In this document: one piece after another, positions 32,293 to 64,000 of the stretch
Numbering within the stretch: the stretch's first letter is position 1
How the letters are laid out: every line of letters starts with the position of its first letter
IMG/VR virus record: IMGVR_UViG_3300006802_000087
Location: 11,824-75,823 of that record
DNA from: a virus
Strand: one strand, 5' to 3'
Length of the DNA: 64,000 nucleotides
Position numbers and translations under genes: made by a program
The notes under the pieces: generated by a model
The model's database searches: none
The model's input: only the letters and a program-made list of their open reading frames with translations
What the model was told of the DNA's origin: nothing

Positions 32293-33048
32293 ATGAAAAT
32301 TAATGTTAAAGTTAAGGATGTACCATTCGGAACTTCGATACAGGATGTAACTGTTCCTGATGTATTAAAGAAAAAAGTCCGAACCGGTCTAGACTATTTT
32401 GATTGTGTCTTAGGTGGTGAAGGCTTCACACCCTCAATGGTAACACTCTTTACCGGAACTCCCGGCGCTGGTAAAACAACAATGATGATGACACTTGCAA
32501 ACGCAATCCAAGGTAATGGAGGTCAAGTAGTCTTTAATACAGCAGAAGAGTCACTGTATCAAATTAAAATGACAGCCGATCGTCTAAAACTTAGACATAA
32601 ATTTCTTGTGGGCGGAGAAGATACAATAACTACTTTACTTGAAGGTTGTGACAAGATAAGAAGTCAAACACCTGAAAGACCGTTCTTTCTTATTGTCGAT
32701 TCACTTCAGTGTATGAATGATGGTAAGTTTAAATCTGGAAGAATTACGTCAGCAACTTCAGAAAGATCCCTAGGCCTTCTTACAAATTATGCAAAAGAGC
32801 ATGCATGCAATGTCATTGTTATTGGGCAAGTGACTAAAGACGGAAAAATGGCAGGTTCTAATAAACTCAAACACATGGTTGACAGTCACATCCATCTTTC
32901 AGTAGAAAGTAAGGATCCGGATTTAATGGGTTGCAGAGTTTTAGAAACACAAAAGAATCGTTTTGGTGGTTCAGGACATCTTATATTTCTAAAGCTTAGA
33001 AGAAGCGGGTTTACTGAAGTTGCTAGGTTGAGTGATTCTGGAGTATGA
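32293..33048 (+). CDS. RadA/Sms-like ATPase (ATPase core only), copy 1
   Basis: GTPGAGKTT, AEES, IVDSLQ, GQVTKDG, HMVD, KNRFG. Confidence 0.85.
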   Translation: MKINVKVKDVPFGTSIQDVTVPDVLKKKVRTGLDYFDCVLGGEGFTPSMVTLFTGTPGAGKTTMMMTLANAIQGNGGQVVFNTAEESLYQIKMTADRLKLRHKFLVGGEDTITTLLEGCDKIRSQTPERPFFLIVDSLQCMNDGKFKSGRITSATSERSLGLLTNYAKEHACNVIVIGQVTKDGKMAGSNKLKHMVDSHIHLSVESKDPDLMGCRVLETQKNRFGGSGHLIFLKLRRSGFTEVARLSDSGV

Positions 33049-33486: not shown

Positions 33487-33570
33487 GCCTTGATGGTGAA
33501 ATTGGTAGACACGCAAGACTTAAAATCTTGTTTCCGCTAGGAAGTACCGGTTCGATTCCGGTTCAAGGCA
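33487..33570 (+). tRNA. tRNA-Leu(UAA), CCA not encoded
   Basis: GCCTTGA/TCAAGGC stem, CAAGA-CTTAAAA-TCTTG anticodon arm, long variable arm. Confidence 0.9.
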
Positions 33571-33574
33571 TTAT

Positions 33575-33651
33575 GCACCCGTAGCTCAGCTGGATAGAGC
33601 ATCCGCCTTCTAAGCGGACGGTCACAGGTTCGAATCCTGTCGGGTGTACCA
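33575..33651 (+). tRNA. tRNA-Arg(UCU)
   Basis: GCACCCG/CGGGTGT-ACCA, anticodon TCT, GGTTCGAATCC. Confidence 0.95.
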
Positions 33652-33843
33652 CTTTGATATAACCGGGAATACGCTCCTCGTCCCCAGTTTTTATTTATGA
33701 GATGTTAGGACTATCTCGGTTATATCTTTTTTTAAAGAATGCAAGGGGGCTTCCTGAGGCGGGTCAGTCTTAAACGATGGTAATCCCAGGTGTACCGATA
33801 ATCGCGAAGATATGTCGGAGATATCACGCCCTTGCTTCTATGA

Positions 33844-33920
33844 TGCGGGATGGAGCAGTTGGTTAGCTTGTCGGGCTCATAACCCGAAGGTCGGGGGTTC
33901 GAATCCCTCTCCCGCACCCA
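33844..33920 (+). tRNA. tRNA-Met(CAU), initiator-like
   Basis: TCGGG-CTCATAA-CCCGA arm with three G-C pairs; ends CCA. Confidence 0.9.
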
Positions 33921-33951
33921 TTTTAAACAAACGAGTAACAAGAGAAAACAA

Positions 33952-34233
33952 ATGAGAATTTTAATATTACTATCTTATATAGGCTGTACACAGCACGTTC
34001 ATACAAAAGACATTAACAAAGTCAATGTGGGAATGTCATATGATACCACAACACGAATCTTAGGGGAGCCTAATAAAGTGGTAAATAATTCTATAAGGGT
34101 ATATCAAGGTACAGAAACTGCATACAATCATGAAGTTTTATTGTACAGATCACACTCAAATGCATCTGAGTCTCTTAGAGATTGTTATCTGATATTTACA
34201 GATAAAGTTTTAAGAGAAGTGAATTGTTTTTAA
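33952..34233 (+). CDS. Small lipoprotein, SmpA/BamE-like
   Basis: LLSYIGC; VNVGMSYDTTTRILGEP. Confidence 0.55.
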   Translation: MRILILLSYIGCTQHVHTKDINKVNVGMSYDTTTRILGEPNKVVNNSIRVYQGTETAYNHEVLLYRSHSNASESLRDCYLIFTDKVLREVNCF

Positions 34234-34241
34234 TGTTATTT

Positions 34242-34314
34242 GGGCACTTGGCGCAGCGGTTAGCGCAGGGAACTCATAATTCTTTGGTCGTAGGTTCAAA
34301 TCCTACAGTGCCCA
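34242..34314 (+). tRNA. tRNA with CAU anticodon, probably Ile2 (lysidine type)
   Basis: GGGCACT/AGTGCCC-A; body resembles E. coli ileX; elongator Met not excluded. Confidence 0.8.
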
Positions 34315-34422
34315 CTTTACTATCAATGCTCTGGGTTAGGTTAAAACTGCCGGTCGGATTAGGGCATTGATATAAAACTCCTTGGTTAATCCGACCGGCA
34401 CCCTTTTTAATTGGAGATAAAA

Positions 34423-47764: not shown

Positions 47765-48115
47765 ATGTCAAATCTAGATAAACTTACTTACTTCTCAATC
47801 GATTATCGATCACCACCCAGCGGATTAGGTCAGATTGTTTTCCCGGGTGGGAGTGATAAACCTGCTGATCTCGTTCTTGTCACTTATAAAGGCAATGGTG
47901 ATGTTGCAAATCCGTTTTACAAAGCCACCCAGCACTTTCCTGAAGATCTGTTCGAAGAGGGCGGCAGAGAGTGGCTAGCTGAAAAGCTTCTTGGCTATGG
48001 TGTCACTCATGTTTATGATCCAGAACTGGGAGACCAGTGGGGAATGTCTCAGCATCTTGGCGAGCATTACTATCCCATTGCGATCTGGTTTAACCGAACC
48101 TTTGGTGCATTATAA
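47765..48115 (+). CDS. Hypothetical protein, tandem paralogue B
   Basis: YFSIDYRSPPSGLGQI, GVTHVYDPEL. Confidence 0.75.
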   Translation: MSNLDKLTYFSIDYRSPPSGLGQIVFPGGSDKPADLVLVTYKGNGDVANPFYKATQHFPEDLFEEGGREWLAEKLLGYGVTHVYDPELGDQWGMSQHLGEHYYPIAIWFNRTFGAL

Positions 48116-48559
48116 AATGTAACACCACAAAACCGGTAGTATAATATAACCATAACCCACGGAGGCACCATGAAAACTTACATATTCCCCACACTCAATA
48201 CTCAGGCAATCACAAGAAATGTTAATGAGATCCTCTCTGATGCTGAGTCATCTGTTCGAACTCGAACTTTTGGCGACTTACTCGTGGCGGCACAGATTGC
48301 CAAGAAAGAAGCAGACAAGTGGTTGTCACCCGAGTCATTGATCGCTAATGAGGGACTTGCTTCTCACTTCATATCTAGAGATTGGGCAAATCTGCAACAG
48401 ATCTCAGATGTTTTACACCACTTCTTGCTGACAGGTGAAGTTTCTATCAAGGCAATGGATCAAGAAGACATTGATAAAGAACTGAAACGCTTACACTAAA
48501 ATGTAACACCACAAAACTAACAGTATAATATAAAAGAACCAACAACCACCGGAGGCAAT

Positions 48560-49120
48560 ATGCCAGAGCTTCACACAATCAAAACATTCACATTCTCAGA
48601 ACTTCCAGAAGACATTCGACAAGAAGTCATTGAAGCCTACGAGGTGCCTGATAACTGGGACGAATGGGTTATCGATGCAATCAACGAAGAAGCTGCTGAG
48701 CTCGGTATCGAAAACTTCGACTTCCAATACTCAGGCTTTTGGTCTCAAGGCGACGGAGCTTCTTTCACCGGCACATTATCAACAGAACTCCTGACTTCGC
48801 TTTTGAAAGAGGAAGTCAATGAAGAACTCAGTTTCAATATAACTACATGCACGGCTCAAATCGACCGCAAGTCATACCCACATTATGTACATGAAAACAT
48901 GGTCTATGCTAGTTTCGACAGTGGAGATGAGCCTGTCACAGACGAAGACCGTGATGCTATTCTCACAGCATTGGAAGCATGGAAGAATGCATTATGCTCC
49001 AAATGGTATCGGCAACTTCGAGAATCATATGACGCAGAATATGAAGAAGAGAGAATCGCTGAAGAGTTTGAAGGCACTCGTTTTCTGAGAAATGGTAAGG
49101 TATTCGACTTTAACTTTTAG
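48560..49120 (+). CDS. Acidic conserved hypothetical protein
   Basis: YSGFWSQGDGASF motif; promoter at 48501. Confidence 0.7.
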   Translation: MPELHTIKTFTFSELPEDIRQEVIEAYEVPDNWDEWVIDAINEEAAELGIENFDFQYSGFWSQGDGASFTGTLSTELLTSLLKEEVNEELSFNITTCTAQIDRKSYPHYVHENMVYASFDSGDEPVTDEDRDAILTALEAWKNALCSKWYRQLRESYDAEYEEERIAEEFEGTRFLRNGKVFDFNF

Positions 49121-49124
49121 TTAG

Positions 49125-49230
49125 ACTCCGTGGTTGGAGTGGTGGCAGTATTCGCTCATTGATCAGCGGCTGCAACCACGGTGACACAGGTGGTAACTGT
49201 GGCAGGAAAGAGGTGGGTAACCAACCAAGG
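49125..49230 (+). ncRNA. Structured ACTCCGTGGTTGG element, copy 3
   Basis: TGGTTGG/CCAACCA, GTGGTGGCAG/CTGCAACCAC, CACAG/CTGTG, GGAAAGAGGTGGGTA. Confidence 0.6.
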
Positions 49231-51357
49231 CTAACAAAAAATGTAACACCACACAACTGGTGGTATAATATAAAAGTAACCAACCAACAAGGAGTTCAAC
49301 ATGAAAGTTAAGTTTCATATCAGAGTTTACACAAACCCAGGTGGTCCCCGTGCGCATTGGAAAGATCAGGAGTTTGAAGATGTGGATCACATCGGAACAG
49401 TGGTCGGAAAACGAAGAGTTCGAGAAGACTATTGGACTCGGTTCGACTATGAAGTTGAGTATCAAACTGAGGACGGTAAAACTTTATACCGATGGGTACC
49501 CGACTACAATGTTGTAAAGATCGACGAAGCAAATGTGTAACCACACAAAACAGTTAGTATAATATAACCACAACCAACCAAACAGGAGTTCATATGAACA
49601 TATACAGCAACATTCTCAACCGTTACTTCGATTACAAAGGCCAAGCTTGGCAAGTTATCGGACATTGTGAAGACAGATACGGGCAGACTTTTCGAAAGGT
49701 GATCAACATGAAAACAGCAGAGGAAATATACCTAGGCTACGAAGAGTTTTGGAAGGTGACACCCCGAGGCTACTCACACAACGGAAATGTAACAGCATAA
49801 AACCAATAGTATAATATAACCACAAAAACTAACCAAGGAAATAATATGATTATCACACTATTAGCACACCATATCGAATGGGACACCGACGGAAACAATG
49901 ATGTTGCGCGATCACTGCCGTCTAAGGTAGCAGTTGAAGTCGACTTAGTCGAAGATTCCGAAGCAGGATCGATTAATGACCAGATCTGCAACCAGTTATC
50001 AGACTTAGTCGGCTTCTGTGTTTTGGACTACAAACTGGAAGGATACTCAGCTGAGGCTGATTATGCTCTTCAAATGACCGGCACAAAATCGGAAGCATAA
50101 TAAAACCATAACCAATCAACCAATACAGGAGGCAATATGCCAAAATACCAAGGACACAAAAACTGGAACCACTGGAACATCGAACTCTGGATCAGCAATG
50201 AATATGATGTTTACAAACGAGTTCAATACCTTCTCGGCCGCAAACATATCTCAAAGAACGAGATCGCATCAGTCTTGTTAGGAGAGCTCCGCAATCGCTG
50301 GGGTGAGACAACACCAGACGGAGCACCTCTCACATACACAGGGATCCGAGCACACTTGACCGGTGTCGACCGCGACGACTACTAATACAAAAAGTGTAAC
50401 ACCACAAAACCAATAGTATAATATAAAAGAACCAACAACAACCAACACCCAAAAGGAGTCATTATGACTACAACAATCAGTATCAAAACAGGAAACTACG
50501 TGAAGTCTATTCAGTCAAGAGAGGCAGTCTATCGAATCAAAGCCGTAACAGCTGACACTGTCACCCTCAAGAGAGTTAACGGTCGCCTTAACGGTGAGTA
50601 TGAAGTTCCTCGATCGACCTTCTCTAAATACTTCCACGCAGCAGCATAAGAGTTCACATGAGTCAGGAAAGAGCAATCATCATTGAGGTCGAGTCCCTCC
50701 TCCACGAGGGACAATCACCGGCTGTCATAAAGAGAGCAATAGAAAAGAAATACATCAAGAGCTTCTCCCAAAAAGACTGGGAGCGCATCATGATCCAGGC
50801 ACAGCTAAGAAGAGCATTCACACGGCCAGTACCATAATGCAAAAGAACACCAAAGTGTAACAGAACAGAGCCAAGTATATAATATATCTACAACCAAAGG
50901 AGACCGCATGTTTATCAAACTCACAAAGGTAACACAAACAACAACAGGATACGGTGTGTCTCTCAAAGTAGACAGCATCCAAACAGATATCTGGATCAAC
51001 ACCTCCCATATCATTACAATGTATATATCAGGCCTGACATATGTCAACACCACTCATGAGACGATCAAAGTGTTAGAGACACCTGAGCAGATCATTGCTC
51101 TCATGAGCGCCGAGTAGGAGAGAGGTAACCATGACAGGAAGAGTCATCTACAGATTCGCAAGAGAGATCCTCCGAGAGCCACTCATCCTCGCTCGGGTAT
51201 CACTGCGCCAGGAGTATCACTATACTCGACAACTTTTAAGGCAGCGACTGCGCCGCTGTGGCCGTATGGCCACAGTCAGGGAGGTGCTGAGTCGGCATGT
51301 GGAGAATGCAGAGACTCGGGACAAGGGCATATTCTTTTAACTCCTCTGTGCGGGGTG

Positions 51358-51377
51358 GGAAATGATAATCATTATCA
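51358..51377. promoter_or_regulatory. Fur-box-like operator
   Basis: GGAAATGATAATCATTATC, 17/19 to the classical consensus; perfect 7-1-7 TGATAAT-C-ATTATCA. Confidence 0.55.
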
Positions 51378-51566
51378 ATTGGGTTCGGACTAAGTGCGCG
51401 AGATGAAAGTGAGTTATTCGATCGACTTGACTTAAACATACGAACGACCGACAGCACTTTTATGAACTCTCCCCGGGGCGGGTTGCCGCAAATCCTCACA
51501 AAAATGTAACGGCTCTTCACACCCTGTATAATATAATCACAACCCATCCAACCAAGGACAACAACC

Positions 51567-52319
51567 ATGAAACTTAACGTTAAAATCGAAGATATCGCTT
51601 TTGGTACTTCAATCCAAGATATCGCTGTACCGGCTCTCCTTCAAAAGCGCATTCCTAGTGGCCTCGGCTTCTTTGATTATGCACTCGGCGGGAAAGGCTT
51701 TACTCCCTCTCTCTGCGGTCTCTTTACTGGAACACCCGGAGCAGGCAAAACTACAATGATGCTCACTCTGGCTAATGCACTCCAAGGACATGGAGCTCAG
51801 GTGATCTTCAACACGGCAGAGGAATCGCTCTATCAGGTAAAGATGACAGCCAATCGACTTAAACTCCGTCATCCATTCTGTGTCGGCGGTGAGTCTAATG
51901 TTCCTAGCCTCCTCAAAGGCTGCGATACAGTGCGCGAGGCTCATCCCGATCGCCCCTTCTTCCTCATCGTCGACTCTCTGCAATGTATGGATGACGGGCA
52001 CTTCAACAGCGGTCGTATCACCACAGCAACAGCAGAACGCAGTCTGGCCCAACTCACCTCATATGCCAAGGAAAACGGGTGCAATGTGCTGGTCATCGGG
52101 CAGGTAAACAAGGACGGCAAGATGTCGGGATCGAATAAGCTCAAGCACATGGTGGATATGCACATTCACCTCTCTGTGGAGGAAAAGGATGAGGACCTCC
52201 GCGGTTGTCGCATTCTCTCTACAGCCAAGAACCGTTTCGGAGGCTCAGGCCACTTGGTTTATCTCAAGCTCATGAAATCAGGGTTCACAGAAGTGGCTCG
52301 CTTAGGTGAGGGGAGTTAA
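51567..52319 (+). CDS. RadA/Sms-like ATPase (ATPase core only), copy 2
   Basis: Same motifs as 32293..33048; KNRFG. Confidence 0.85.
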   Translation: MKLNVKIEDIAFGTSIQDIAVPALLQKRIPSGLGFFDYALGGKGFTPSLCGLFTGTPGAGKTTMMLTLANALQGHGAQVIFNTAEESLYQVKMTANRLKLRHPFCVGGESNVPSLLKGCDTVREAHPDRPFFLIVDSLQCMDDGHFNSGRITTATAERSLAQLTSYAKENGCNVLVIGQVNKDGKMSGSNKLKHMVDMHIHLSVEEKDEDLRGCRILSTAKNRFGGSGHLVYLKLMKSGFTEVARLGEGS

Positions 52320-52338
52320 TCCCCGCCTTCGGGCTCTT

Positions 52339-52422
52339 TGTATCTCGCGCTACGCACGCGTATACGCGCGGGATCCTCTGGGCACAATGTATCTCGCGCT
52401 ACGCGCGTACTGCGCGCGCGAG
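52339..52422 (+). repeat. 17-bp direct repeat TGTATCTCGCGCTACGC with alternating-CG tails
   Basis: Copies at 52339 and 52388. Confidence 0.8.
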
Positions 52423-53527
52423 AGCTTTTATGTAACAGGACACACAGGGTGGTATAATATAAAGGTACCACAGGAGGACACATGGACAGAGGAATAACAC
52501 TAACACATCTAATGATTCATTATACCGATGGCAGCAAAGGTTCACTAGACCTCACTCAGTCATCGCCATGGCGCCGCCAGAAGTTATTACGCGAATGGTC
52601 GGAGCAATCACACGTCGCATCAGCTTATCTATACAAAGGACACTAGGAGACACTATGACACAATTCAACAACACATATCAAAACGGTTTTAAACTTCTCT
52701 TCTTGGCCGTGTGGCCCGGTGAGGATCACTCCCCAGAGATCTGGACACGAGGTGACATTGCTGCCGACTTCGAAGACAGCCCTGAGGTTCTATCACTCAT
52801 CGATCAGATGGAACTGGGTGACAGTATCCGGCATGAAGAGTCCAATCTGGTCTTGATCCGTATCCCCGACTACTTATCCCAGCAGAGCTTATTGGCTCAG
52901 TTCTAACCCTTCTCCCACCTCCGAGATAGGGAATAACAGTTATGACCAAAAGTGTAACCGTTATTCCCGTGGTGTATAATATAAAAGAACCACAGGAGGT
53001 AACATGGGAAATGAAAGGATAACCATTAAGATAACCGTTAAGGGAAGATGGTGTGATAATGATGAATATGACCAGTATGGGGAATTGATCCGTTGGCCTA
53101 ATCCAGATCCGTTAGTAGTCTGGAACAGTGGGTGTTGGGACAAGGAACTAGGCCAAGGGGTGATGATGGAAATGCCCGCCTCGAAGTTTAGAGAGCTCAC
53201 CGGTCATATTATATATGGAGGGGATATTGAACCTCGCGGCCTTCATAAGATATCGATCCTGTTTGGGGATTACACCCGACTTAAGTCCTATAGAGAGGAA
53301 GGGGTCATCATTCGAAGAGCTCGAAAGAAGTCCGGAACTCCCAAACAAGTAAGAACCCTCCCAGGTCGAGACAAGCTCAAAGAGGTATTGGAAGGCCGAG
53401 GTCAACAGCTCAAAGGTGTTCAAGCCAGGGTCCGGAAACGGACCTGAGCTCCCTCACAAAAAATGTAACAGCACTACACACCCAGTATAATATAAAAGAA
53501 CCAATCAACCAACAACGGAGGCCAAAC

Positions 53528-53953
53528 ATGGCTACTACAAAAACTCTCCTCTCAAACCTTTCAAGCCTTGTGCATAACGGTGTCATGACCCAAAAGGAAG
53601 CTGACAAGTTCAAAAACCGTATTCTCAAGGAAATCCAACAAGCCGAGCACGATCAAAAGGTCCAAGCTCTCTCACTCAAAACTTCTGAGTTCATGACTCC
53701 AGGTGTTCAATACTCCATCTCCGACCTGGTCAAGGAAGTGATGGGAATCCTGGCACCCTGTCATGGTCACAAGGAAACCAAAGCTGAACAAAAGCATCGA
53801 GATGGAGTTGCTAAACCCCTGATGAAAGCGGCCTTGGAGAACCTAGGTGCGGTAACAGTGGGAAGTGGGGCACAAACTCGATATATGATCCCACCTCAAC
53901 TTCCTGCCCTGGCTCCCATCACTGTAGAACCTGAAGCTCATGATGAGGACTAA
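53528..53953 (+). CDS. Hypothetical protein, paralogue of 60462..60902
   Basis: MATTKTL, ISDLVKEVMGI, APCHG, QTRY shared. Confidence 0.8.
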   Translation: MATTKTLLSNLSSLVHNGVMTQKEADKFKNRILKEIQQAEHDQKVQALSLKTSEFMTPGVQYSISDLVKEVMGILAPCHGHKETKAEQKHRDGVAKPLMKAALENLGAVTVGSGAQTRYMIPPQLPALAPITVEPEAHDED

Positions 53954-54211
53954 CCCATAACTTGGGAGGGGTTATACAAAAAGTGTAACCCATTCCCTCT
54001 CTCAGTATAATATAAAAGAACCACAACAACCACAACGGAGTCATCATGACAGTTATCTACAAAGGCAACACCTATCGTTTCATCGGCTATGTTGGTCTAC
54101 CTGGCACAGAAGTCACAGCTGAACGCGGCGGCAAGTTCTATCGGTTACCCGTCAGTCAGTGTCAACTCATCCGCCAAACCGCTTAACCTCAACCCATACT
54201 TAGGAGTCACC

Positions 54212-54472
54212 ATGACAACACTTATCTTTACTGCACTTATCTCATTGGCAACAGCTGAACCGGTTCAAGAAGCAACAGCTGAACCCACTCAAGAAGCACC
54301 AGTTGTCTTCATTGACTTCGATGAGATCTCTCTCACAGGGGAGTTGGTCAAGCCGTCACTTACTTTGGTTGTAGCTGACCGACAGCCGGCTCAGCCTGAT
54401 CTTCTCATTCCAGATCTCCGTCAGTTCGTGCTGGATATGGAGCGCGCGAAAGTAGCTGAGCCGGCTAAATAA
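54212..54472 (+). CDS. Secreted CglF/GltF-like small protein
   Basis: Signal peptide MTTLIFTALISLATA; IDFDEISLTGELVKP; AGGAG RBS. Confidence 0.6.
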   Translation: MTTLIFTALISLATAEPVQEATAEPTQEAPVVFIDFDEISLTGELVKPSLTLVVADRQPAQPDLLIPDLRQFVLDMERAKVAEPAK

Positions 54473-56590
54473 AGGGAAGTGATTGAGGGTCGGGCAAAGG
54501 AGAAGTTCGCCTGGCTCTCTCTCTTTTGTGTAACAACACATCAAGCATTGTATAATATAACCACAACCACCGCAGGAGATACTATGCGACTTTACAAGGA
54601 CAAAAACAATCACAGCCTCAGACGCCGCTCGCGCAAGAACCGTCAATTGCAGAAGCGATATGAAGAAGAGTTGAAGCAACAGCAACAGCGCGCCGCAAAG
54701 AAGCAATGGCTGAGCATTCTGGCAGAACTCGCTGAAGATGCAGACTAGGGAGAGAATATGAGACAGTTTTTGAAAGACCCAGACAATATGGGTTTCGTTT
54801 GGTTGGCGGTTATCGTCACAGTTTTTGCCTTCCTCATCTATTGGGAGGCGGGACAGAATACGCCGGAGAGGCAAGCAGAGAGTGATCTGCGTCTTAAGTG
54901 TATCAGCAAGGCTAGTGGTTCCCAGCCAGAATGCTGGGACGAGAAGGACTGGCAGGTATTCTGCCAGAAGACCGGAATATGTAGGGGGACAAAATGAGCA
55001 ACGACAGAGACTACTTTAACATTCCCGGCACAGATCGAAAGCTAGCGATCGACAGAGTTCTGGTCTTGCCATTGGCATTTGCAGTTCCCTTCGGTCTGAT
55101 CGCTATCATGATCTGGGCAGTAGGTATCGGCTGGACCTTCACCATTGTGGCTGCCTTGGTGCTATGGCGGATCCTGGATGGCATAAGACTGGTATAAAAT
55201 GTAACGCTGTGTCAGGTGGTGTATAATATAAACAACCACCACAGGAGGCAACATGGTTATCGTTATCGGACTCATGATCATCACATTAGGACCATTATTC
55301 TTATTGACCCTCACACCCCCAAACAACGGAGACAAATAATATGGTAGGATGGATACTTGCTGCAATGGCAGCAGACTTAGTGCATACAAAGGCAGCGGAA
55401 GCAGAGAAGCAAAAGCGGATCAAGCGGATGGGGCAACTACAGTTCCTCCTTGGTCGTCCGGCAACGCGCACTCACTTCATGGACTGTAGATGCGGATTAT
55501 GCCGCAACCGCAGAACAGCCTGGCAGGCTGAACTGGACAGGCTAAAGTGTAACTGCTAACACAACCCAATATAATATACAAGAACCAACCAAGGAAATAC
55601 CATGACAGCATTACTCGTTATCAACGCATTCTTACTTTTAATTGTCGCAGTCAAAATTGAACGAATGGCACATCAACAGTTCGAACTTGACAATGACGAT
55701 GCAAACTACAACGACTGGGACTTTGGTTTCAGTGACAAATAGGAGGTAACATGACAGAACTCATCATCCCAGGCGGAGTATTCTTCCCTCACAGCACAAC
55801 ACCTAAACCCAGACCAAAGGATCGACCATGACAGCAGAACAATTAGAACAGCAGTTAGAGCAACTTAAAGACCGTATCAATGCTCTCTGGGTAGAGCGAG
55901 AGGCACAGGAGCAGCGACGTCGCCGGGCAAATCAGGCAGCGAACAACCATGTGTATGAAGTGGGTTACAGTCACAGCTGGATGGAATACACCTCGATCAG
56001 CAACGCAGCCGCGGCAGCAAAAGAGAGATTGACAGAGATCAGCAGCGAACTGGATCAGGCATATGCAGAGCAGAGAGAACTACTGGAACAATGTAACGCA
56101 CTTGCAGGCTTGGTATAATATATAGGTCAACCATCAACGGAGATAACATGAAACACGAACTTTTACTTACAAATGAAGCAGCAACTTACTTCGCATCACA
56201 GGGACAAACACAGCAACAAGTCCTCCGCAATATGGCCTTGGTAGCAGATCAGATCTGTGAAGCCAAAGGCTGGACAGTGGGCATCAACGCCATGGTGGTC
56301 ATCCGGGAAGCAGTGACCGGTGGCAGCACTGGACTTAAACCCTGGTTCGTCATCAATCAGGTGCTGGATACTCACAAGACGGCTGTAAGCGATCCTGACT
56401 TAAACCGCAATACACCTTCACTCAATCGTCATGCACACTGTATCCTTACATCTCGCAAGAACGGGCCGAACCGCTATGGTGGCTTCACTCGTCTGGTGGC
56501 ACAAGCAAGGAACGGCAACCTGACACAGCGCATTGTGTAACACCACCTCACACCCTGTATAATATAACCACAACCCCAATCGGAGATACT

Positions 56591-57187
56591 ATGACTAGTC
56601 ACACTAAAAGTCAAATCCAAACCTTGCTCAACAACCCAGCCTATGTCGACGAGGCCATCCGCATTCTTGGCCAGAACCAGACACCAGGCGAACTCCGTGC
56701 CAAAAGCACACATATCAACAATGACATCGGCTTCTCAGCAGCATACGGCACCACCGGCACTCGTCTCTTTGAGTTCGTCACTGGCATCAACACCAAGACA
56801 GGTGAGAAGAAGTGGCAGCCCAAGTCACTGGCACACCCAGTCGCTAATCGAGTCTTCAGCCGCTACATCAACAATCACGGCTTGGACAGTGCATTGGCAC
56901 TTGGCCAGAAGATTGCTGGGATCCACTGGAAGCAACTGGGAGAACTTCTCACCTGGCAACCAGTTACCTTACCCACAAAGCCGGTGGAAGTAAAGAGAGA
57001 CAACGACGGAACTGCAGCATCCATCACCATCCGTGGTGTGGAAGTACAGCTAGTGAAAGGAAAGGCAGTCCGTGTGCTATGGGACAGCAAGAGAGTCTGG
57101 TTGCCGAAGTCTCAGATCCAAATCAACGCATCCTCAGGCGACATCACAATGCCACGATGGCTCGCTCGCAATAAAGGCATGCTCTAA
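56591..57187 (+). CDS. Conserved phage protein
   Basis: QTPGE..THINNDIGF; C-terminal WLPKSQI..MPRWLARNKG. Confidence 0.7.
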   Translation: MTSHTKSQIQTLLNNPAYVDEAIRILGQNQTPGELRAKSTHINNDIGFSAAYGTTGTRLFEFVTGINTKTGEKKWQPKSLAHPVANRVFSRYINNHGLDSALALGQKIAGIHWKQLGELLTWQPVTLPTKPVEVKRDNDGTAASITIRGVEVQLVKGKAVRVLWDSKRVWLPKSQIQINASSGDITMPRWLARNKGML

Positions 57188-57193
57188 AGAATA

Positions 57194-57252
57194 ACTCCGT
57201 GGTTGGTGTTTGGAAGAGTGGCAAAAGGACGCTGCTCTTCCTCTTACCGCCG
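57194..57252 (+). ncRNA. Short ACTCCGTGGTTGG element, copy 4
   Basis: ACTCCGTGGTTGGTGTT then hairpin GGAAGAGTGGC/GCTGCTCTTCC. Confidence 0.5.
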
Positions 57253-57306
57253 ATGTAACAGCACATCATGTATTGTATAATATAACCACAACCACTGGAG
57301 GCAAAC

Positions 57307-58566
57307 ATGACAAACTATATCTACTTAGTTGCAGGAGAGCGAAACACTAAACCCGGGTCTGTGTCTGACAGCGGAGGCCTCTATGCTAATGTAGGAATGA
57401 CACATAATGGCAGACTACCAGAAGACAGATTCAGAGATCCTGATTATAAGAAGAAGCAATCAGGTGGCAGATGGGTACTGATCAAACAATGGGCAGTAGG
57501 TGACATGAAGGATCATTCTATTCACAACTTCCTCAAGCGACATGATGATGTAAGATGGAATCCGATCTCACACAATACAGAAGAGTTTTTGTTTATTGAC
57601 GACGAAGGTGACGGTCTTAAAGCCATTGACATTATTGAACACATCATGTTAGAGCATTTGATGCCATCTTTTATTAAGGAGAAGCTAAGTTCTACACAGG
57701 CTGCATTGACAGAAGAACGGAATAAGAGAGAGCATATTGCGAATGCAGAGCCATGGCTTCTTCTCCAAGAAGCATTGATCCGCCAAGAAGAAGCTTTTAA
57801 AATAGAATGTGACAAAAGAAGGGAAGCATTAGAGCGTGATAATGATATACACCTTGCACTAAAAGAAGCACAACTCCGCAATACAGTGGATGAAAGGCTT
57901 AATGAAGCTATGACAGAAGCAAAACAAATGGTTGAAATAGCACAAAAAGAAGTCAAAACAGCCAATGATACTACTAATGCGCTTACTCGACAGAGAGATC
58001 AAGCAATTGCCAAGTCTAAGTCAAGAACACGTCTGTCAGTTTTGTCAATGGCACTTGGGTTTGTATGTTCTTTGTCACTAGGAACAGAAGCATTCTCAAA
58101 TATAGCTGGTGATAAGGTTGCCATGGCAGAGTATCAGGTTGAAAGAAGCAATCAAGCAATGTTAGCTTCTAATAGCAAAGCAAAAGAACTTGAACTGGAG
58201 ATCAATAGGTTGACGCGCGAGAACAATAATCTTAAGCAAACACTGTCTGAACACCAGCAAAAGACAACAAAGGCAGTGTCAGCCGCGGCAAAACGACACA
58301 AACAAATATGCTTGTCAGCTTCTTCTTGTGTTGCGGATGATCAAGACGACAATAGCTTTGTGTGCTCTGTATACAAAGGAGACAAAAGATATCAATGTAA
58401 ATATACAGTTGAGGGTCGTATACCTGTGTGTGGTTTTGGTAACTGTCAGAGTATAGGCGAAGACGCAGCAATAATCAGCCTCAACAATGGGAAAGCTTAT
58501 TCAGACTGGTTGGGCGACACCGGCTGGAAAATTGTAAAGTATGAGTCATATGGCACACCACAATAA
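57307..58566 (+). CDS. Membrane-anchored coiled-coil protein with Cys-rich C-terminus
   Basis: Globular N-terminus, coiled coil, LSVLSMALGFVCSLSL, coiled coil, six Cys. Confidence 0.65.
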   Translation: MTNYIYLVAGERNTKPGSVSDSGGLYANVGMTHNGRLPEDRFRDPDYKKKQSGGRWVLIKQWAVGDMKDHSIHNFLKRHDDVRWNPISHNTEEFLFIDDEGDGLKAIDIIEHIMLEHLMPSFIKEKLSSTQAALTEERNKREHIANAEPWLLLQEALIRQEEAFKIECDKRREALERDNDIHLALKEAQLRNTVDERLNEAMTEAKQMVEIAQKEVKTANDTTNALTRQRDQAIAKSKSRTRLSVLSMALGFVCSLSLGTEAFSNIAGDKVAMAEYQVERSNQAMLASNSKAKELELEINRLTRENNNLKQTLSEHQQKTTKAVSAAAKRHKQICLSASSCVADDQDDNSFVCSVYKGDKRYQCKYTVEGRIPVCGFGNCQSIGEDAAIISLNNGKAYSDWLGDTGWKIVKYESYGTPQ

Positions 58567-60100
58567 TGTAAAACAGGCAACAGCGGTGTATAATATATAA
58601 GAACCAAGCAATCCCAAACGGAGACACCATGACACTTTACATTCTTATTCGATCTTTCGACCACTCACCGTCAGTTATCCTTGGCGCGTTTCACACACTT
58701 CAAGCAGCACAGGCTCATGCTGAGGGTCTTGCTGTAGATAACGGTGACGAACTGGATAGAGATCTAGGAGATATGGAAGAGGAGATGTATAATATGCATA
58801 ATGCGGCTGATGCATTCTTCTTTGACGGCTTCTACCACGAGATCGTTAGCACTCAACTTCACGCGCAAGATTAGGAGGCACCATGACTTCAAGACTTTCA
58901 TATCCTCACAACGACATCCGCATTATCAGCATCAGCCAGCCAAAAGCCCGCAAAGAATATGTGTGCATTGGTTGCAGCTGCAAGATCAGCAAGGGTGACC
59001 GCTATCAGCGCAGCAACTTCACCGACGACAACATCAATGAGGGACGACAGCTACTATCTACCACATCATGTCTGGCATGCTCTCCCACAGATCATCCCAT
59101 CTTTGGTGTGGCTAACGGCAAGTTCCGCAAGAGCGCAGATCTTACTTGGCGGCCGAAGACACAGCAGTATCCTATTGACTGGTATTCATGTTAAGACCCG
59201 ATCTGCAACCGGGTGCACTGATGCACCTCTCTAATCTACCCCTTCAACTAGACGGCTTTGCCATTGTCCTATCTACCTCAGATAAGAAGAGGGGAAGACT
59301 ACGCGGCGTTGGCTACAACATTCTCTTTAATGGCGCAGTAGTCACCTTCTATGCAGCCAGCACACCCAACAAGCTGATCCTCTCAGCGAAGATTAATCCG
59401 CAACAACCTAACATATACTACACATTCAAACCAATACTACTCGCAGGAGCACCACATGACAGACAGCAACGGCAAGATCATCAGATCAATCACGCAAGCA
59501 GCAGCAGGCAATAACAGCTACTACATTGTCTACTACAAAGACGGCAGCTGCAAGACATACACTAGAGCTACAGGGGTGATCACCAGGTGGTTCCAGAAGA
59601 ATGGGTAGATAGAATGGGGCGGAGAGCAAAGACAAAGAAGACCAAAGCTGCATGGCAATGGTCAGGGAAGAAGCTCCGCGAAGAAGAGCGGAGACTCCGC
59701 CGCTTAGTAACAGAGCAGAAGCAGAGAGAAGCAGCTAGGTGGAAGCAGTACCGGGACAGTATCTATGCAGACTGGGATGACGAGGACGAGTGGGATGAAC
59801 CGGTGCCAGATACTTCGTGCTCATCAGTGTCTGACGCAGAACTCTTGCACGAGCTATCTCGCGTTCAGCTCGAGATCGCAGAGAGGGAAAGTCATCTCGC
59901 GCGCGGGGAAAGGGAGACCGAAGAAGATGTGCACCTTGCACAGTGGTACGCAGAGCTAGTGCTAGAGCGGCAGAGAAGGAGGATCTAGGAATGGAACAGA
60001 GATACATTGCACCCGTGACCAGGTGGATACAAGGCTATAAACTACACCATGCTCTAGGAGCAACCTGTGTCCTCTTGGCAGCTGCTCTTTGGTGCATCCT

Positions 60101-60367
60101 CTAAGTACTTCGTGCCCGGGCAACTATGCTGGGATGGTGTAGCACAGCGTGCACACGAATGATCTGGTGGATAAACACTACACGGCCACCAGGTGAAACT
60201 ACATCACACCAGTGGCTGCGAGGATCCGTTATCTCGTGCACATGGACAGTAATGATAATGGCGAAGTGTCTCGTGCCCGTCTCGTCCTCCATCCACTCTA
60301 TCAAGAAGCCAGGCCGGAGGTGGGGAGTTAACTGAGGACGGGGAATGTAGGGAAGACTAGTCGGCAT
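60101..60367 (-). CDS. Small hypothetical protein flanked by direct repeats
   Basis: MPTSLPYIPRP start; LRPGFLIEW. Confidence 0.45.
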   Translation of the reverse strand: MPTSLPYIPRPQLTPHLRPGFLIEWMEDETGTRHFAIIITVHVHEITDPRSHWCDVVSPGGRVVFIHQIIRVHAVLHHPSIVARARST

Positions 60368-60411
60368 GGTCTTAAGTATCTTGTGCCCGGGCAGTCTTCG
60401 TATCTCGAGCA

Positions 60412-60441
60412 CAAAAAGAGGGAGCTCCTCTCGGAGCTCCC
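60412..60441 (-). terminator. Intrinsic terminator
   Basis: GGGAGCTCC-GAGA-GGAGCTCCC then TCTTTTT on minus strand. Confidence 0.75.
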
Positions 60442-60461
60442 CGCGGGAGTGGGTGTGTGGC

Positions 60462-60902
60462 TTAGGCCTCTGTGTCTGAGCTGTCTTGAGCTAGCTCATC
60501 CATGGCTTCCACGACTTGAGGCAGTTCACCGTTGAAGAGGTAGCGAGTCTGTGCTTTTGAGCCAGACACTGTAACCATCTCACCCAGTGAGGCAATGGCA
60601 GCTTTCATACGAGGCTTAGCCACACCGTTGCGGTACTTCTCCTCTTCCTGTGTCTCTTGATAACCGTGACAAGGTGCTGAGATACCCATAACTTCCTTGA
60701 CCAGATCTGAGATGGCATAAGGTGTACCAGGCTGGGCAAAGGCTGTGAGATTGGTGGTGAGCTCTGCAACGATGGCTGCTTCTTCGCGGTCGGCTTCGGC
60801 TTGGATGATGCGTCGTTTGATGCGCTTGTGTTCTGCCTCTGAGATACAGCCGTTGCATAGCAGAGAGTTGAGGTTAGCGATGAGGGTCTTGGTTGTAGCC
60901 AT
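60462..60902 (-). CDS. Hypothetical protein, paralogue of 53528..53953
   Basis: MATTKTL start behind AGGAG; promoter 61016-60988 on minus strand. Confidence 0.8.
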   Translation of the reverse strand: MATTKTLIANLNSLLCNGCISEAEHKRIKRRIIQAEADREEAAIVAELTTNLTAFAQPGTPYAISDLVKEVMGISAPCHGYQETQEEEKYRNGVAKPRMKAAIASLGEMVTVSGSKAQTRYLFNGELPQVVEAMDELAQDSSDTEA

Positions 60903-61388
60903 AGTGGGCTCCTGTCTTTTGGTTGGTGGGTGGTGTCCTTTAAGCCGGTTTCCCGTTCCAGCGCCTCTGAGCGAGGTGGGCATATATATTATACACCACG
61001 GGGTCGAGTGTTACATTTTTGTGTGTGTCTTGAGTGGGCGCGAGATGCATTGTGGCGATGGGTGCAATGTGCTGGGAGGTGTCTAGAGGGCCGTTACAGA
61101 GCCCCCTTTTAGAGCCCCTCTCTGACCCCCTGGGCCCCCGCCCCTAGCGCGCAGCCCCCCTAAATGCCCACCGGCGGAGCCCCCTGGCGCCAGGCTGCCT
61201 AAGTACAATTTTTCTGCACGTCAACTTTTTGACCAGCTTACCGGAACATACGAACACGCAGCAGCAATTTAATTTACAGCCCTGTTTTCTGCGCGCCAGA
61301 CTGTGGACATAAGGGTTTTTCTCACAAAAATTTCCGGAGAATATTCTGAAAACTTTTCCTAATTATTGTATAATATACAGAGGAAAAT

Positions 61389-61721
61389 ATGGCAGGACTT
61401 GACACATCATGGGAAACAGGCGACCGGGTCATTCATTTGGAAGACATATTCCGGTACCTAAATGTGAGAAGAAGACGAGTGCACCGGATGCCCGCTCGTT
61501 CACTCTATAAAATGTTGGGGCGTCGACTGAGTATACAAAAGCGGCGCATGAGGCGTGCTGATATTTCTGTGCCGATCATCCTTGTTGTAGACAGGGCGAC
61601 TCGCCGACCTGAGGTCGTTCTGGACGGGAATCATCGGCTAGCTAAGGCAGTGACGATGAAAAGGGATATCCCTTTTCGTATTCTGTACAGTGATGAATAC
61701 GATTTGTTGTTCGGATCATAA
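61389..61721 (+). CDS. ParB/sulfiredoxin-like domain protein
   Basis: ADISVPIILV..VLDGNHRLAKA. Confidence 0.7.
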   Translation: MAGLDTSWETGDRVIHLEDIFRYLNVRRRRVHRMPARSLYKMLGRRLSIQKRRMRRADISVPIILVVDRATRRPEVVLDGNHRLAKAVTMKRDIPFRILYSDEYDLLFGS

Positions 61722-61782
61722 AAATTTCTCCGGGAAAATTTGACCAATTTTTAGATAATTATGCTTATATATTGGAGATGCA

Positions 61783-62271
61783 ATGAAGATTACACGAAGT
61801 CAACTGCGAAGTTTAATTAAAGAGGCAATTAACGAACACAGAATTAAGCCCTCTGTTGCTAATATCCCGCCGGAACATTTAGATAAAATACACAGTCTTA
61901 TTGATGGCGGTCGGCTAGCGCAGGCACAGTCTTTTATTGATGCATTTGGTGGTGATCCTGATTATGTGGATGATTATATCGCGTATGGTGAGGTGGGTGA
62001 CTTAGAAAAATTAGGAAACAAAGCTTCAGATGTGATTGCCACGATTCCTAAAGATTCCTATGGTTTTTCAAAGTTAAAGGACATGGAACCGGTATACGAT
62101 ATTGATCAGCAGGCATATGATCTAGTCAAATCAAAAATTTTAAAAGATGAACAGGTGGATCCCGAATATTTCGACCGTGAGATGGTTCATAACCGGAGAT
62201 ACTACGGTAATAGAAATAGAGATCCTAGTGTTGATCGATCCGGATATTTTGAAGATGATTTTATTCGGTGA
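61783..62271 (+). CDS. MKIT-leader protein
   Basis: MKITRSQLRSLIKE; ATAATTA at 61755. Confidence 0.75.
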   Translation: MKITRSQLRSLIKEAINEHRIKPSVANIPPEHLDKIHSLIDGGRLAQAQSFIDAFGGDPDYVDDYIAYGEVGDLEKLGNKASDVIATIPKDSYGFSKLKDMEPVYDIDQQAYDLVKSKILKDEQVDPEYFDREMVHNRRYYGNRNRDPSVDRSGYFEDDFIR

Positions 62272-62333
62272 CAGTGCGGCGAGGATGACCCCGGGGGCTT
62301 ATACTCGTCGTTCATAGGGCAGGGCTAGCTCGC

Positions 62334-62354
62334 GCCAGTTGACACTGGCTTTTT
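62334..62354 (+). terminator. Intrinsic terminator
   Basis: GCCAGT-TGAC-ACTGGC-TTTTT. Confidence 0.6.
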
Positions 62355-62400
62355 ATTTTCTCCGGAAAATTTGAGGAACTTTTAGATAGTTATTATCACT

Positions 62401-62991
62401 ATGAGAATTACGCGCAGACATATAAGAAGATTAATCGAGGGAATGCTTAACGAGATGCCGATGTTGCAACCTGATCTTTTGCCCTCGGGTTTCTATGTTA
62501 CGGTTCAAAAAGATACTTATGTGCCTGACATGTCTGACTGGTTTACCCATGAAGACGGCGGACCGGTCGATCCAATGAAAATGATGATGATTCATATACA
62601 CGATCAGAGTGGAGGAATCAAGGCTGAATTATATATGAGATATTGGACGTCTCGGTATTGTGGAGGAACTTGGGAAGTTTATCGTGCTTATTTAAGAGGC
62701 GCACCTGACGGCACCGGTCCCTTGTTGTATGATATCGCAATGGATATCGCCGCTGATCGTGGGATCATGAGTGATCGGATGACGACGTCTGATGATGCAG
62801 CTAGAGTTTGGGAATATTACCTGGATAATCGGCCGGATGTCATAACTAAGCCTATAGGTCGATGTGTTGGGAAATGGATGAGAGAATTAGCTGAGGGAAG
62901 GCGTCCTGAGTTTTCTGAGTTGAAGTTTATAAAATCGGCAGGATCTCCGAGCATCATCGATGCCTTAGGCGACAAGATACGTTTTGGATAG
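62401..62991 (+). CDS. MKIT-leader GNAT-like protein A
   Basis: MRITRRHIRRLIE; GTGPLLYDIAM..SD..SDDAARVWEYY. Confidence 0.6.
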   Translation: MRITRRHIRRLIEGMLNEMPMLQPDLLPSGFYVTVQKDTYVPDMSDWFTHEDGGPVDPMKMMMIHIHDQSGGIKAELYMRYWTSRYCGGTWEVYRAYLRGAPDGTGPLLYDIAMDIAADRGIMSDRMTTSDDAARVWEYYLDNRPDVITKPIGRCVGKWMRELAEGRRPEFSELKFIKSAGSPSIIDALGDKIRFG

Positions 62992-63009
62992 GTAAAAAGT
63001 GAGTCATAT

Positions 63010-63621
63010 ATGAAAATAACACGAAACTATTTAAGAAGACTTATTGAAGGTGTACTTAATGAGATGCCCGCCAGGCAACCTAGTGGTCTAGACCCAAGTT
63101 TCTATTGGACTGTCCAAAGATTTTCTCTAGACGCAGCTGACGAAGACGAGTGGGACGGCATTACTGAGGGGATTGTTGAAACAGTACATATCACTGGTAA
63201 TATGATCTTGCCAAAATGGGGTGACACTGAGATTGCACATTTACAAATGAAAAAAACAGCCGACTGCCCTCACTGGGAGATCAAGAACGTCTCCGTGCGA
63301 GGTGATAAGTTCTACAAAAATCACGGAATACGACAACCCCAGACGGCAAAAGACCTGGGCCCGATGATGTATGACATTGCCATGGAGATCGCCGGCCTGG
63401 CCGGCCTTATTAGTGACAGTAGTGGGTCTTCTGCTGATGCTCAAAGAGTTTGGAATTTTTATCTAGATAATCGGGCAGGTGTCGATGTCGACGTCACTGC
63501 CCTATCTCCCGGGACTTGCGGCCGCAGAGATCAATTGACTTTCCAGAACAGAGTATATCGAAAGAAGACGGGTGGCCCGAGTATAATTTCTGCCTTAGGC
63601 GATAAGATTAACTTTGTTTAA
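63010..63621 (+). CDS. MKIT-leader GNAT-like protein B
   Basis: MKITRNYLRRLIE; LGPMMYDIAM..SD..SADAQRVWNFY. Confidence 0.6.
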   Translation: MKITRNYLRRLIEGVLNEMPARQPSGLDPSFYWTVQRFSLDAADEDEWDGITEGIVETVHITGNMILPKWGDTEIAHLQMKKTADCPHWEIKNVSVRGDKFYKNHGIRQPQTAKDLGPMMYDIAMEIAGLAGLISDSSGSSADAQRVWNFYLDNRAGVDVDVTALSPGTCGRRDQLTFQNRVYRKKTGGPSIISALGDKINFV

Positions 63622-63731
63622 AGTAAAAAAGTGAGAGCAGCTCCGTGAGAAAATCTCATTATTTCACAAAAATTTCCGGAGAAATTTCGCAAAACTTTAC
63701 CTATGTATACAGTATATAATATGGAGTAGCA

Positions 63732-64000
63732 ATGAAAATTACAAGACGTCAGATAAGACAACTTATCTTACAAGAGGGTTTCCTAGACTTCTTTAAAAGA
63801 GGAGTTTTTCGAGACACCTCTGATCAAGATGAAAAGCAATTAATTACCAATTTAGATGTTGCATACGACGAGGCTGAAAGACAAGGCAGAAAACACAACC
63901 AAAGATACAATGATCAGTGGCCTATATCAGCGATTAAAAGTGCGTATAGCGGCCCATTTGAAATAAAGCATATTTCAGAATTATCGGAAAGTAGTCAACA
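63732..64000 (+). CDS. MKIT-leader protein, truncated by window edge
   Basis: ATG AAA ATT ACA AGA CGT CAG = MKITRRQIRQLILQE, GGAG RBS. Confidence 0.7.
   Translation, partial: MKITRRQIRQLILQEGFLDFFKRGVFRDTSDQDEKQLITNLDVAYDEAERQGRKHNQRYNDQWPISAIKSAYSGPFEIKHISELSESSQ

Follow-up and report, generated by a model that had tools for sequence, protein, structure and literature searches.

GltF is a small periplasmic linker of the envelope-spanning, gliding-type Agl-Glt machine of the Myxococcota. To our knowledge the Glt machine is found only in Myxococcota and in relatives of Bdellovibrio. GltF, a protein required for gliding, is the least understood part of Agl-Glt, and its contacts with the TonB-like domain of GltG and with the crevice of GltC have so far only been predicted. 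Phages, for their part, make small early exported proteins that block envelope functions, such as T5 Llp, Cor and T4 Imm and Sp, most of which are lipoproteins or membrane proteins. In Myxococcus xanthus the G1 cluster has the gene order gltD-E-F-G-H, GltF has been localised to periplasmic positions at the focal adhesion clusters, and the protein has been reported from Myxococcales and Bdellovibrionales only (PMC3169522). M. xanthus GltF has been described as largely disordered with two helices, and in a published AlphaFold model its strand 94-111 extends the sheet of GltG's TonB-like C-terminal domain and its helix 133-147 sits in the GltC crevice (PMC11761067).

Here we analysed a 64,000-nucleotide stretch of DNA from a large uncultured marine phage (positions 11,824 to 75,823 of IMG/VR record IMGVR_UViG_3300006802_000087), which we call the window. 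An open reading frame (ORF) on its + strand at 54212-54472, stop included, encodes a protein of 86 residues, P0001, which the reading of the ORF and the profile searches described below identify as a putative diverged GltF/CglF homologue. A preliminary description of this DNA had reported an 86-residue ORF with the motif IDFDEISLTGELVKP; both were borne out, with the motif at residues 34-48. An AGGAG ribosome-binding site, read from the sequence, is located five bases 5' of the ATG (54202-54206, + strand). Since more than 36 homologues of P0001 are known and dN/dS against close relatives is 0.22-0.38, this ORF is a genuine gene and not a chance ORF. These values indicate that the GltF-like gene is under purifying selection, more relaxed than that acting on the neighbouring genes, whose dN/dS is 0.07-0.22. 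Some gene callers choose an alternative reading of 127 residues from 54089, which is unlikely, as it overlaps a separately conserved ORF of 46 residues at 54046-54186 (dN/dS 0.07); it also lacks support from the relatives, whose starts all match position 54212. A search for longer, fused forms of P0001 found none, which we count as weak evidence.

The N-terminus of P0001 (54212-54256, + strand) comprises 15 residues, hydrophobic for the most part, which end in A-T-A and are followed by E. Aligned with the N-termini of canonical GltF proteins, this segment resembles a signal peptide: the A-T-A end lines up with A-x-A ends in all relatives, and the Ala directly before the predicted cut is kept in 98% of the bacterial rows and 92% of the diverged rows. 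The n-region lacks any basic residue. On the sequence of this segment we consider it likely that P0001 is exported via an N-terminal signal peptide. Sequence and alignment delimit an acidic, Pro/Gln-rich linker (54254-54301, + strand), part of which (residues 15-24) has AF2 pLDDT values below 50. It includes a 24-nt tandem duplication (8 residues), which the window gene shares with a single 99%-identical protein (P0002); the other close relatives do not have it, and the length of the linker appears free to vary. Conservation then marks a strand segment with IDF...GELVKP at residues 32-53 (54305-54370, + strand), the proposed docking strand for a TonB-like C-terminal domain of the GltG type. 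Finally, AF2 predicts a C-terminal helix at residues 69-81 (54416-54454, + strand), whose sequence differs from that of the canonical GltC-docking helix.

The overall AF2 model of P0001 (pTM 0.24) comprises a helix at residues 3-13, an extended middle and the helix at 69-81, the latter with block-mean pLDDT values of 77 and 87. The model of a canonical protein, P0094 (pTM 0.23), has a helix at 2-12, an extended middle and a helix at 68-78. Both proteins thus have the same order of elements, in agreement with the layout reported for M. xanthus GltF (PMC11761067), and there is no globular fold in either model.

The preliminary description had proposed that P0001 is a homologue of CglF/GltF and had set a check against the CglF profile beforehand as the test that could refute this. 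That check formally failed: in an NCBIfam search the sole match of P0001 was CglF (NF033764), at E 0.058 and 13.4 bits, below the 90 bits or more that define the equivalog. This model was nevertheless matched by 10 of the 15 members of the P0001 family (best E 6.3e-4), with no other family recurring, and the canonical subfamily matches it at 5e-15. Because syntenic gltF from marine and freshwater Myxococcota MAGs (metagenome-assembled genomes) also falls short of 90, with 52.6 bits for locus L073 as an example, the cut-off of NF033764 is tuned to Myxococcus-type sequences.

A GltF profile made only from bacterial sequences (92 proteins from 80 loci) gave a different result. Searched against the six-frame ORFs of the window, it found P0001 as its single significant match (E 3.9e-8, 28.8 bits, an E-value that rests on few columns since P0001 is short), and it matched 36 of the 36 members of the diverged family to which P0001 belongs. 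When alignments were compared using hhalign, the diverged family scored 97.8% (E 1e-12) against the bacterial-only alignment and 98.4% (E 5.7e-15) against a mixed canonical alignment, over 56-64 columns. P0001 thus has significant profile similarity to the wider GltF family, that is, to the proteins encoded between gltE and gltG. Judged by these profile comparisons, P0001 is almost certainly a remote GltF/CglF homologue, so that the homology proposed earlier stands on the bacterial-only profile and hhalign and falls short on the curated model.

Broader searches placed the protein in a small group of its own. When 1.84 billion representative proteins were searched exhaustively, a profile restricted to the close relatives returned 14 clusters; every one was of the diverged type, and canonical GltF was not reached at E <=0.001. 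The link emerged with a broader family profile, which retrieved 1466 proteins at E <=10, among them, at about E 1e-9, another and larger subfamily, the canonical one. In the ESM Atlas the three nearest clusters, with scores of 0.82, were a Bdellovibrionota hypothetical, a Myxococcota hypothetical and a CglF-family cluster, a proximity that we treat only as a lead. P0001 matched no family in a PHROGs search, and none of 50,697 records of cultured phages was matched by tblastn. A resemblance to the Pas factor saposin fold (PF09016) was rejected: it reached 20 bits for a threshold of 27.5, covered only residues 1-22 and was found in 2 of the 15 family members, and we attribute it to the hydrophobic N-terminus.

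A scan of bacterial genomes with the canonical subfamily yielded 80 loci that were kept (L007-L086), mostly from MAGs that are Myxococcota by name. The order gltD-gltE-[F]-gltG-gltH/cglE was found in 77 of the 80, and in L073 it was confirmed using the NCBIfam models for GltE, GltG, the AgmX/PglI C-terminal domain and CglE. Since this gene order equals that of the M. xanthus G1 cluster, the small genes of the syntenic loci are true gltF orthologues. The C-terminal domain of GltG/GltJ is TonB-like, with matches to NF033768 and TIGR01352. In seven of the loci (L018, L020, L021, L025, L050, L065 and L068) a tandem second GltF-like ORF, more divergent and with 40-73 bits on the canonical profile, lies about 400-700 bases upstream of gltF. 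The gene for P0001 has a different setting, outside any G1-type glt cluster and within a cassette region of the phage. Neither the window nor the related contigs yielded a relative of GltD, E, G or H, the phage record holds no AgmX/PglI (GltG/GltJ-type) domain, and a scan of 185,579 bacterial species representatives with two peptide patterns found no relatives of the P0001 type.

We then compared 92 bacterial with 36 diverged sequences column by column. Conserved in both families (in P0001 numbering) are the Ala before the cut, T32, I34, D35, F36, V39, E44, K47 and P48, as well as L65, I66 and R70. P0001 has the core (I/V)DF-x2-V-x3-G-E-L-x-K-P at residues 34-48, of which I, D, F, V, E, K and P reach at least 70% in both families. 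The Y-K-x-R lead-in, the G after K-P-x and the F-N-P turn, all highly conserved among the bacterial sequences, are replaced in the diverged family. All of the residues that characterise the bacterial C-terminal helix (E 99%, M 84%, S 95%, V 74%, K 74%) are replaced as well, and the canonical helix signature D-F-x2-E-(M/L)-x2-S-(V/A) is missing from P0001 although a helix is predicted there.

These segments were mapped onto the published M. xanthus model by counting from the C-terminus on the Myxococcales-type orthologues of L079 and L081, which assumes an equal C-terminal spacing in M. xanthus. Strand 94-111 then coincides exactly with the VDF...GEL motif, helix 133-147 with the conserved D-F-x2-E-L-x2-S segment, and a third element, helix 55-70, with the core of the signal peptide. 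The IDF-x5-G(D/E)L-x-KP core that the preliminary description had given for CglF/GltF was correct, and it maps to the published GltG-docking strand. By this mapping the part kept in the diverged family would be the one that docks on GltG, and the part replaced would be the signature of the GltC-docking helix.

GltF is also encoded by other phages. Canonical-type GltF is carried by at least 85 IMG/VR contigs. L004, which also encodes a canonical copy, is a clear phage contig with terminase and portal genes. At L004:5268-5925 the canonical GltF gene (81 residues) is followed at once by a gene for a 134-residue protein that has a signal peptide and, at its C-terminus, a membrane segment; it is possibly a partner gene or one involved in lysis. 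Among 80 viral canonical loci (L110-L189), none had glt neighbours and none had the promoter motif of the window phage. On the canonical profile the phage copies of this type reach 100-130 bits, P0001 27-29 bits. No paper on a phage-encoded GltF/CglF was found in the literature searched; the earlier statement that such a protein is undescribed in phages holds to that extent, although phage-borne GltF is common in viral contigs. What is particular to P0001 is its diverged subfamily and the segment-specific pattern of conservation.

The diverged type comprises 36 sequences, and the contigs on which it was found (L087-L108) are all short and from marine metagenomes. A promoter of the form TGTAAC-N-TATAATATAA is present on 11 of these 22 contigs, with 14 copies in 13 kb of L106, and the longer related contigs tested have early-region genes in common with the window, in shuffled order. 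Two contigs carry two diverged GltF paralogues each, at the approximate positions 5532-5850 and 8567-8831 in L097 and 1846-2090 and 4099-4350 in L105, which suggests diversification within one genome. In a further metagenome contig with 34% GC, L109, a canonical-like GltF gene (approximately 2035-2330) lies directly behind the same type of promoter and leader, and this copy is possibly intermediate between the canonical and the diverged phage copies.

In a maximum-likelihood tree, whose 193 sequences and 79 columns give limited resolution and include no confirmed Bdellovibrionota sequences, the diverged sequences form one clade (36 rows, SH-aLRT 98). This clade nests in clades of 45 rows (97), 54 rows (97) and 89 rows (66), which hold viral or metagenome sequences only; bacterial sequences join afterwards. 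The simplest reading of this tree is that phages captured gltF and that the divergence took place subsequently within one phage group. A Bdellovibrionota origin of the diverged type is possible.

The GltF-like gene comes second in a unit of two genes. The unit is preceded by a putative cassette promoter (53984-54015, + strand), recognised as a repeated pattern, which consists of TGTAAC (53984-53989), a 16-nt spacer and TATAATATAA (54006-54015), and then continues into a C/A-rich leader. Units with this layout (TGTAAC, 16 nt, the second element, C/A-rich leader and GGAG) occur in about 30 near-identical copies between 40.5 and 57.3 kb of the window, on the + strand only and before small ORFans; a related 21-base promoter pattern has 19 matches where 1.5 are expected by chance, and related metagenome contigs have the same promoter architecture. 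The first gene of the unit (54046-54186, + strand), conserved in relatives, encodes a 46-residue protein without a signal peptide, which is 93-100% identical in L087-L090 (dN/dS 0.07-0.09) and had no match in a Pfam search. Because the two genes are apart in L106, they are not obligately linked. Behind the GltF-like gene there is a terminator-like hairpin (54485-54519) with a U-rich tract (together 54485-54527, + strand; folding energy -22.7 kcal/mol, z -2.9), equalled by 1 of 200 shuffled sequences and located directly 5' of the -35 box of the next cassette (54529-54534).

The order of the whole neighbourhood is kept on the close-relative contigs L087-L090. Of ten neighbouring ORFs compared with Pfam, none matched a family except for one KaiC/RecA-like ATPase. 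The window has two paralogous genes for such ATPases of about 250 residues, at 32293-33048 and 51567-52319, and one stretch of L106 matches both. Since the GltF-like gene follows a recurring putative promoter with sigma-70 spacing, is closed by a terminator-like hairpin of its own and lies among ORFans in an order that is shuffled between relatives, analogy with known phage cassettes suggests that it is expressed early. The early expression proposed in the preliminary description fits this context, from which it is also deduced.

The preliminary description had placed the host in the Myxococcota or Bdellovibrionota, which is plausible since the family is limited to these groups. In our genome scan glt clusters were found almost only in MAGs named Myxococcota or Deltaproteobacteria, or in MAGs with unreliable names. 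The window also encodes a tmRNA (2182-2569) whose tag starts with A-N-N-N-A-H-F and ends with V-A-V-A-A, and the tags of five GltF-bearing MAGs start with A-N-N-N-N-H-F, A-N-N-N-D-N-F, A-N-N-N-N-N-F or A-N-D-N-R-A-F. This likeness of tag sequences to GltF-bearing Myxococcota MAGs is suggestive as a host hint. Searched as DNA against 401 genomes from the phylum of a GltF-bearing MAG, the phage tmRNA matched only at its universal 3' end, a result that is uninformative on the host. Four tRNA genes are present in the window at 33487-34315, for Leu (taa), Arg (tct) and twice Met (cat).

The base composition calls for caution over the host. The phage has 34-37% GC over most of the window and 46-47% in the cassette region, with the step between 1-40000 and 48000-64000, whereas the bacterial glt loci have 48-72%. 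Because the cassette regions of related contigs also have 41-48% GC, the step within the window is a regional property and not an assembly chimera. No cultured relative indicates the host, since the helicase and ligase are at most 30-37% identical to those of cultured phages; blastn of the surrounding 8 kb gave a single match to cultured phages, of 75 bases. Overall the host is probably a member of the Myxococcota, with a Bdellovibrionota host possible.

Our best reading, which we hold tentatively and with somewhat less than even confidence, is that P0001 is an early exported decoy or uncoupler of a Glt-type machine of the host. Under this proposal the cassette would be transcribed from the strong, repeated promoter of sigma-70 geometry, probably early in infection, and P0001 would be exported to the periplasm by its N-terminal signal peptide. 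There the extended segment T-x-IDF-x2-V-x3-GELVKP would add as a strand to the TonB-like C-terminal domain of GltG, or perhaps GltJ, in the host; going by the published model, we give the identification of GltG/GltJ as the partner an even chance. The C-terminal helix, without the canonical conserved residues modelled for the GltC crevice, would not make the normal link to the outer-membrane platform. P0001 would in this way fill the motor-side site, compete with the host GltF and uncouple or re-route the machine, and the phage might gain by stopping movement, by remodelling the envelope or by blocking the entry of competing phages. The pattern of kept and lost segments, as read from the alignments, favours such a machine-altering mimic. 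A fuller account, in which the phage captured a subunit of the TonB-like-powered host machine and made it a decoy that retains the strand for the motor-side GltG and gives up the helix for the outer-membrane adaptor GltC, deployed it in early cassettes and sometimes kept two paralogues, is possible but doubtful.

A counterpoint to the decoy is that the predicted C-terminal helix may still bind the GltC of an unsampled host, which would make P0001 a plain functional GltF; a canonical copy could also be encoded elsewhere in the phage genome, of which the record is about 37% complete. Developed further, this becomes the proposal that the phage supplies a working GltF as a spare part to keep or adjust the host machine, with a C-terminus that fits the GltC of an unsampled lineage. 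The many phages with well-preserved canonical GltF suggest selection for function over interference, and P0001 itself keeps the whole architecture, including a confidently modelled C-terminal helix, and is under purifying selection; the two diverged paralogues in each of L097 and L105 look as if made for different partners. Yet no bacterial relative of the diverged type was found among the species representatives (with two peptide patterns only), and the clade nests in phage copies and not beside a bacterial lineage. Moreover, all the conserved residues of the canonical C-terminal helix and the Y-K-x-R before the strand have been lost, and dN/dS is two to four times that of the neighbouring genes. 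We regard the supply of a working GltF as the main rival of the decoy reading, though as less likely than it.

Two further explanations also have to be weighed against the decoy reading. The same strand could serve on a different target, either another TonB/TolA-like periplasmic domain or a phage protein, and act in superinfection exclusion, receptor masking or lysis timing. A small, exported protein in an early-type cassette has what is generally the profile of an exclusion protein, a TonB-like fold is what the C-terminal domain of GltG/GltJ has, and the canonical copy of L004 adjoins a signal-peptide protein with a C-terminal membrane segment. However, P0001 retains precisely the strand residues that genuine GltF proteins conserve, no domain of the AgmX/PglI type is encoded in the phage record and nothing points directly to another partner, which makes a switch of target improbable in our judgement. 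That P0001 is instead an unrelated small secreted ORFan with a short CglF-like motif is scarcely credible. The insignificant NF033764 match (E 0.058), the empty PHROGs and cultured-phage searches and the ESM Atlas scores of only 0.82 could be read in that sense, but a chance resemblance is effectively refuted by the profile comparisons (97.8-98.4% over 56-64 columns) and by the match of all 36 diverged members to the bacterial-only profile. The alignment moreover extends beyond the motif, covering the end of the signal peptide, the strand and the L-I...R segment, and intermediates exist in L109 and in the viral canonical clades.

A natural family in which one contact segment is kept and the other rewritten is a reagent for testing the model of GltF. 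Specifically, the decoy model predicts that P0001 binds GltG without GltC and has a dominant-negative effect on motility. If true, P0001 would be a natural dominant-negative that dissects the two interfaces of GltF, and the phage would be the first that disables a gliding or focal-adhesion apparatus from within the envelope. The results also add to the evidence for abundant uncultured marine phages that act on the Glt machine, and the narrow distribution of this machine provides a host clue for phage lineages without cultured relatives. The canonical and diverged phage copies, compared with each other, would show a captured host gene being reshaped within early-gene cassettes of phages.

Compared with known systems, the cassettes of the window phage resemble the promoter-early stem-loop (PeSL) cassettes of T4-type phages (Arbiol et al. 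2010, PMC2839356): small ORFans are framed by a Shine-Dalgarno leader, a stem-loop and a putative strong promoter that recurs from cassette to cassette, and the order is shuffled between relatives. They differ in the -35 box, which in the window phage is TGTAAC and not the E. coli consensus. With T5 Llp, Cor and T4 Imm and Sp, P0001 has a functional analogy only, in its size, putative export signal and early-type expression context; there is no sequence relationship, and P0001 has no lipobox.

P0001 is closer to GltF itself. Like M. xanthus GltF, which is CglF (MXAN_4868; NF033764), it is small (86 versus 89 residues, in a family of about 80-90), with a putative signal peptide, apparently without a membrane segment and without a globular fold, and it has the IDF...GELxKP strand followed by L-I...R and then a C-terminal helix. 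Unlike that protein it is encoded by a phage and not between gltE and gltG, and it lacks the Y-K-x-R-T-E lead-in, the P-(Q/E)-G after the strand, the F-N-P turn and the conserved residues of the C-terminal helix. The syntenic gltF products of marine and freshwater Myxococcota MAGs (L007-L086) share the strand core and the overall layout with P0001, but their genes are located in glt clusters (77 of 80 loci) and have a GC content of 48-72%, versus 46% for the phage region. The canonical GltF proteins of uncultured marine phages resemble it in being phage-borne, putatively exported and equal in length and architecture; they have kept the signature of the C-terminal helix, which P0001 has lost.
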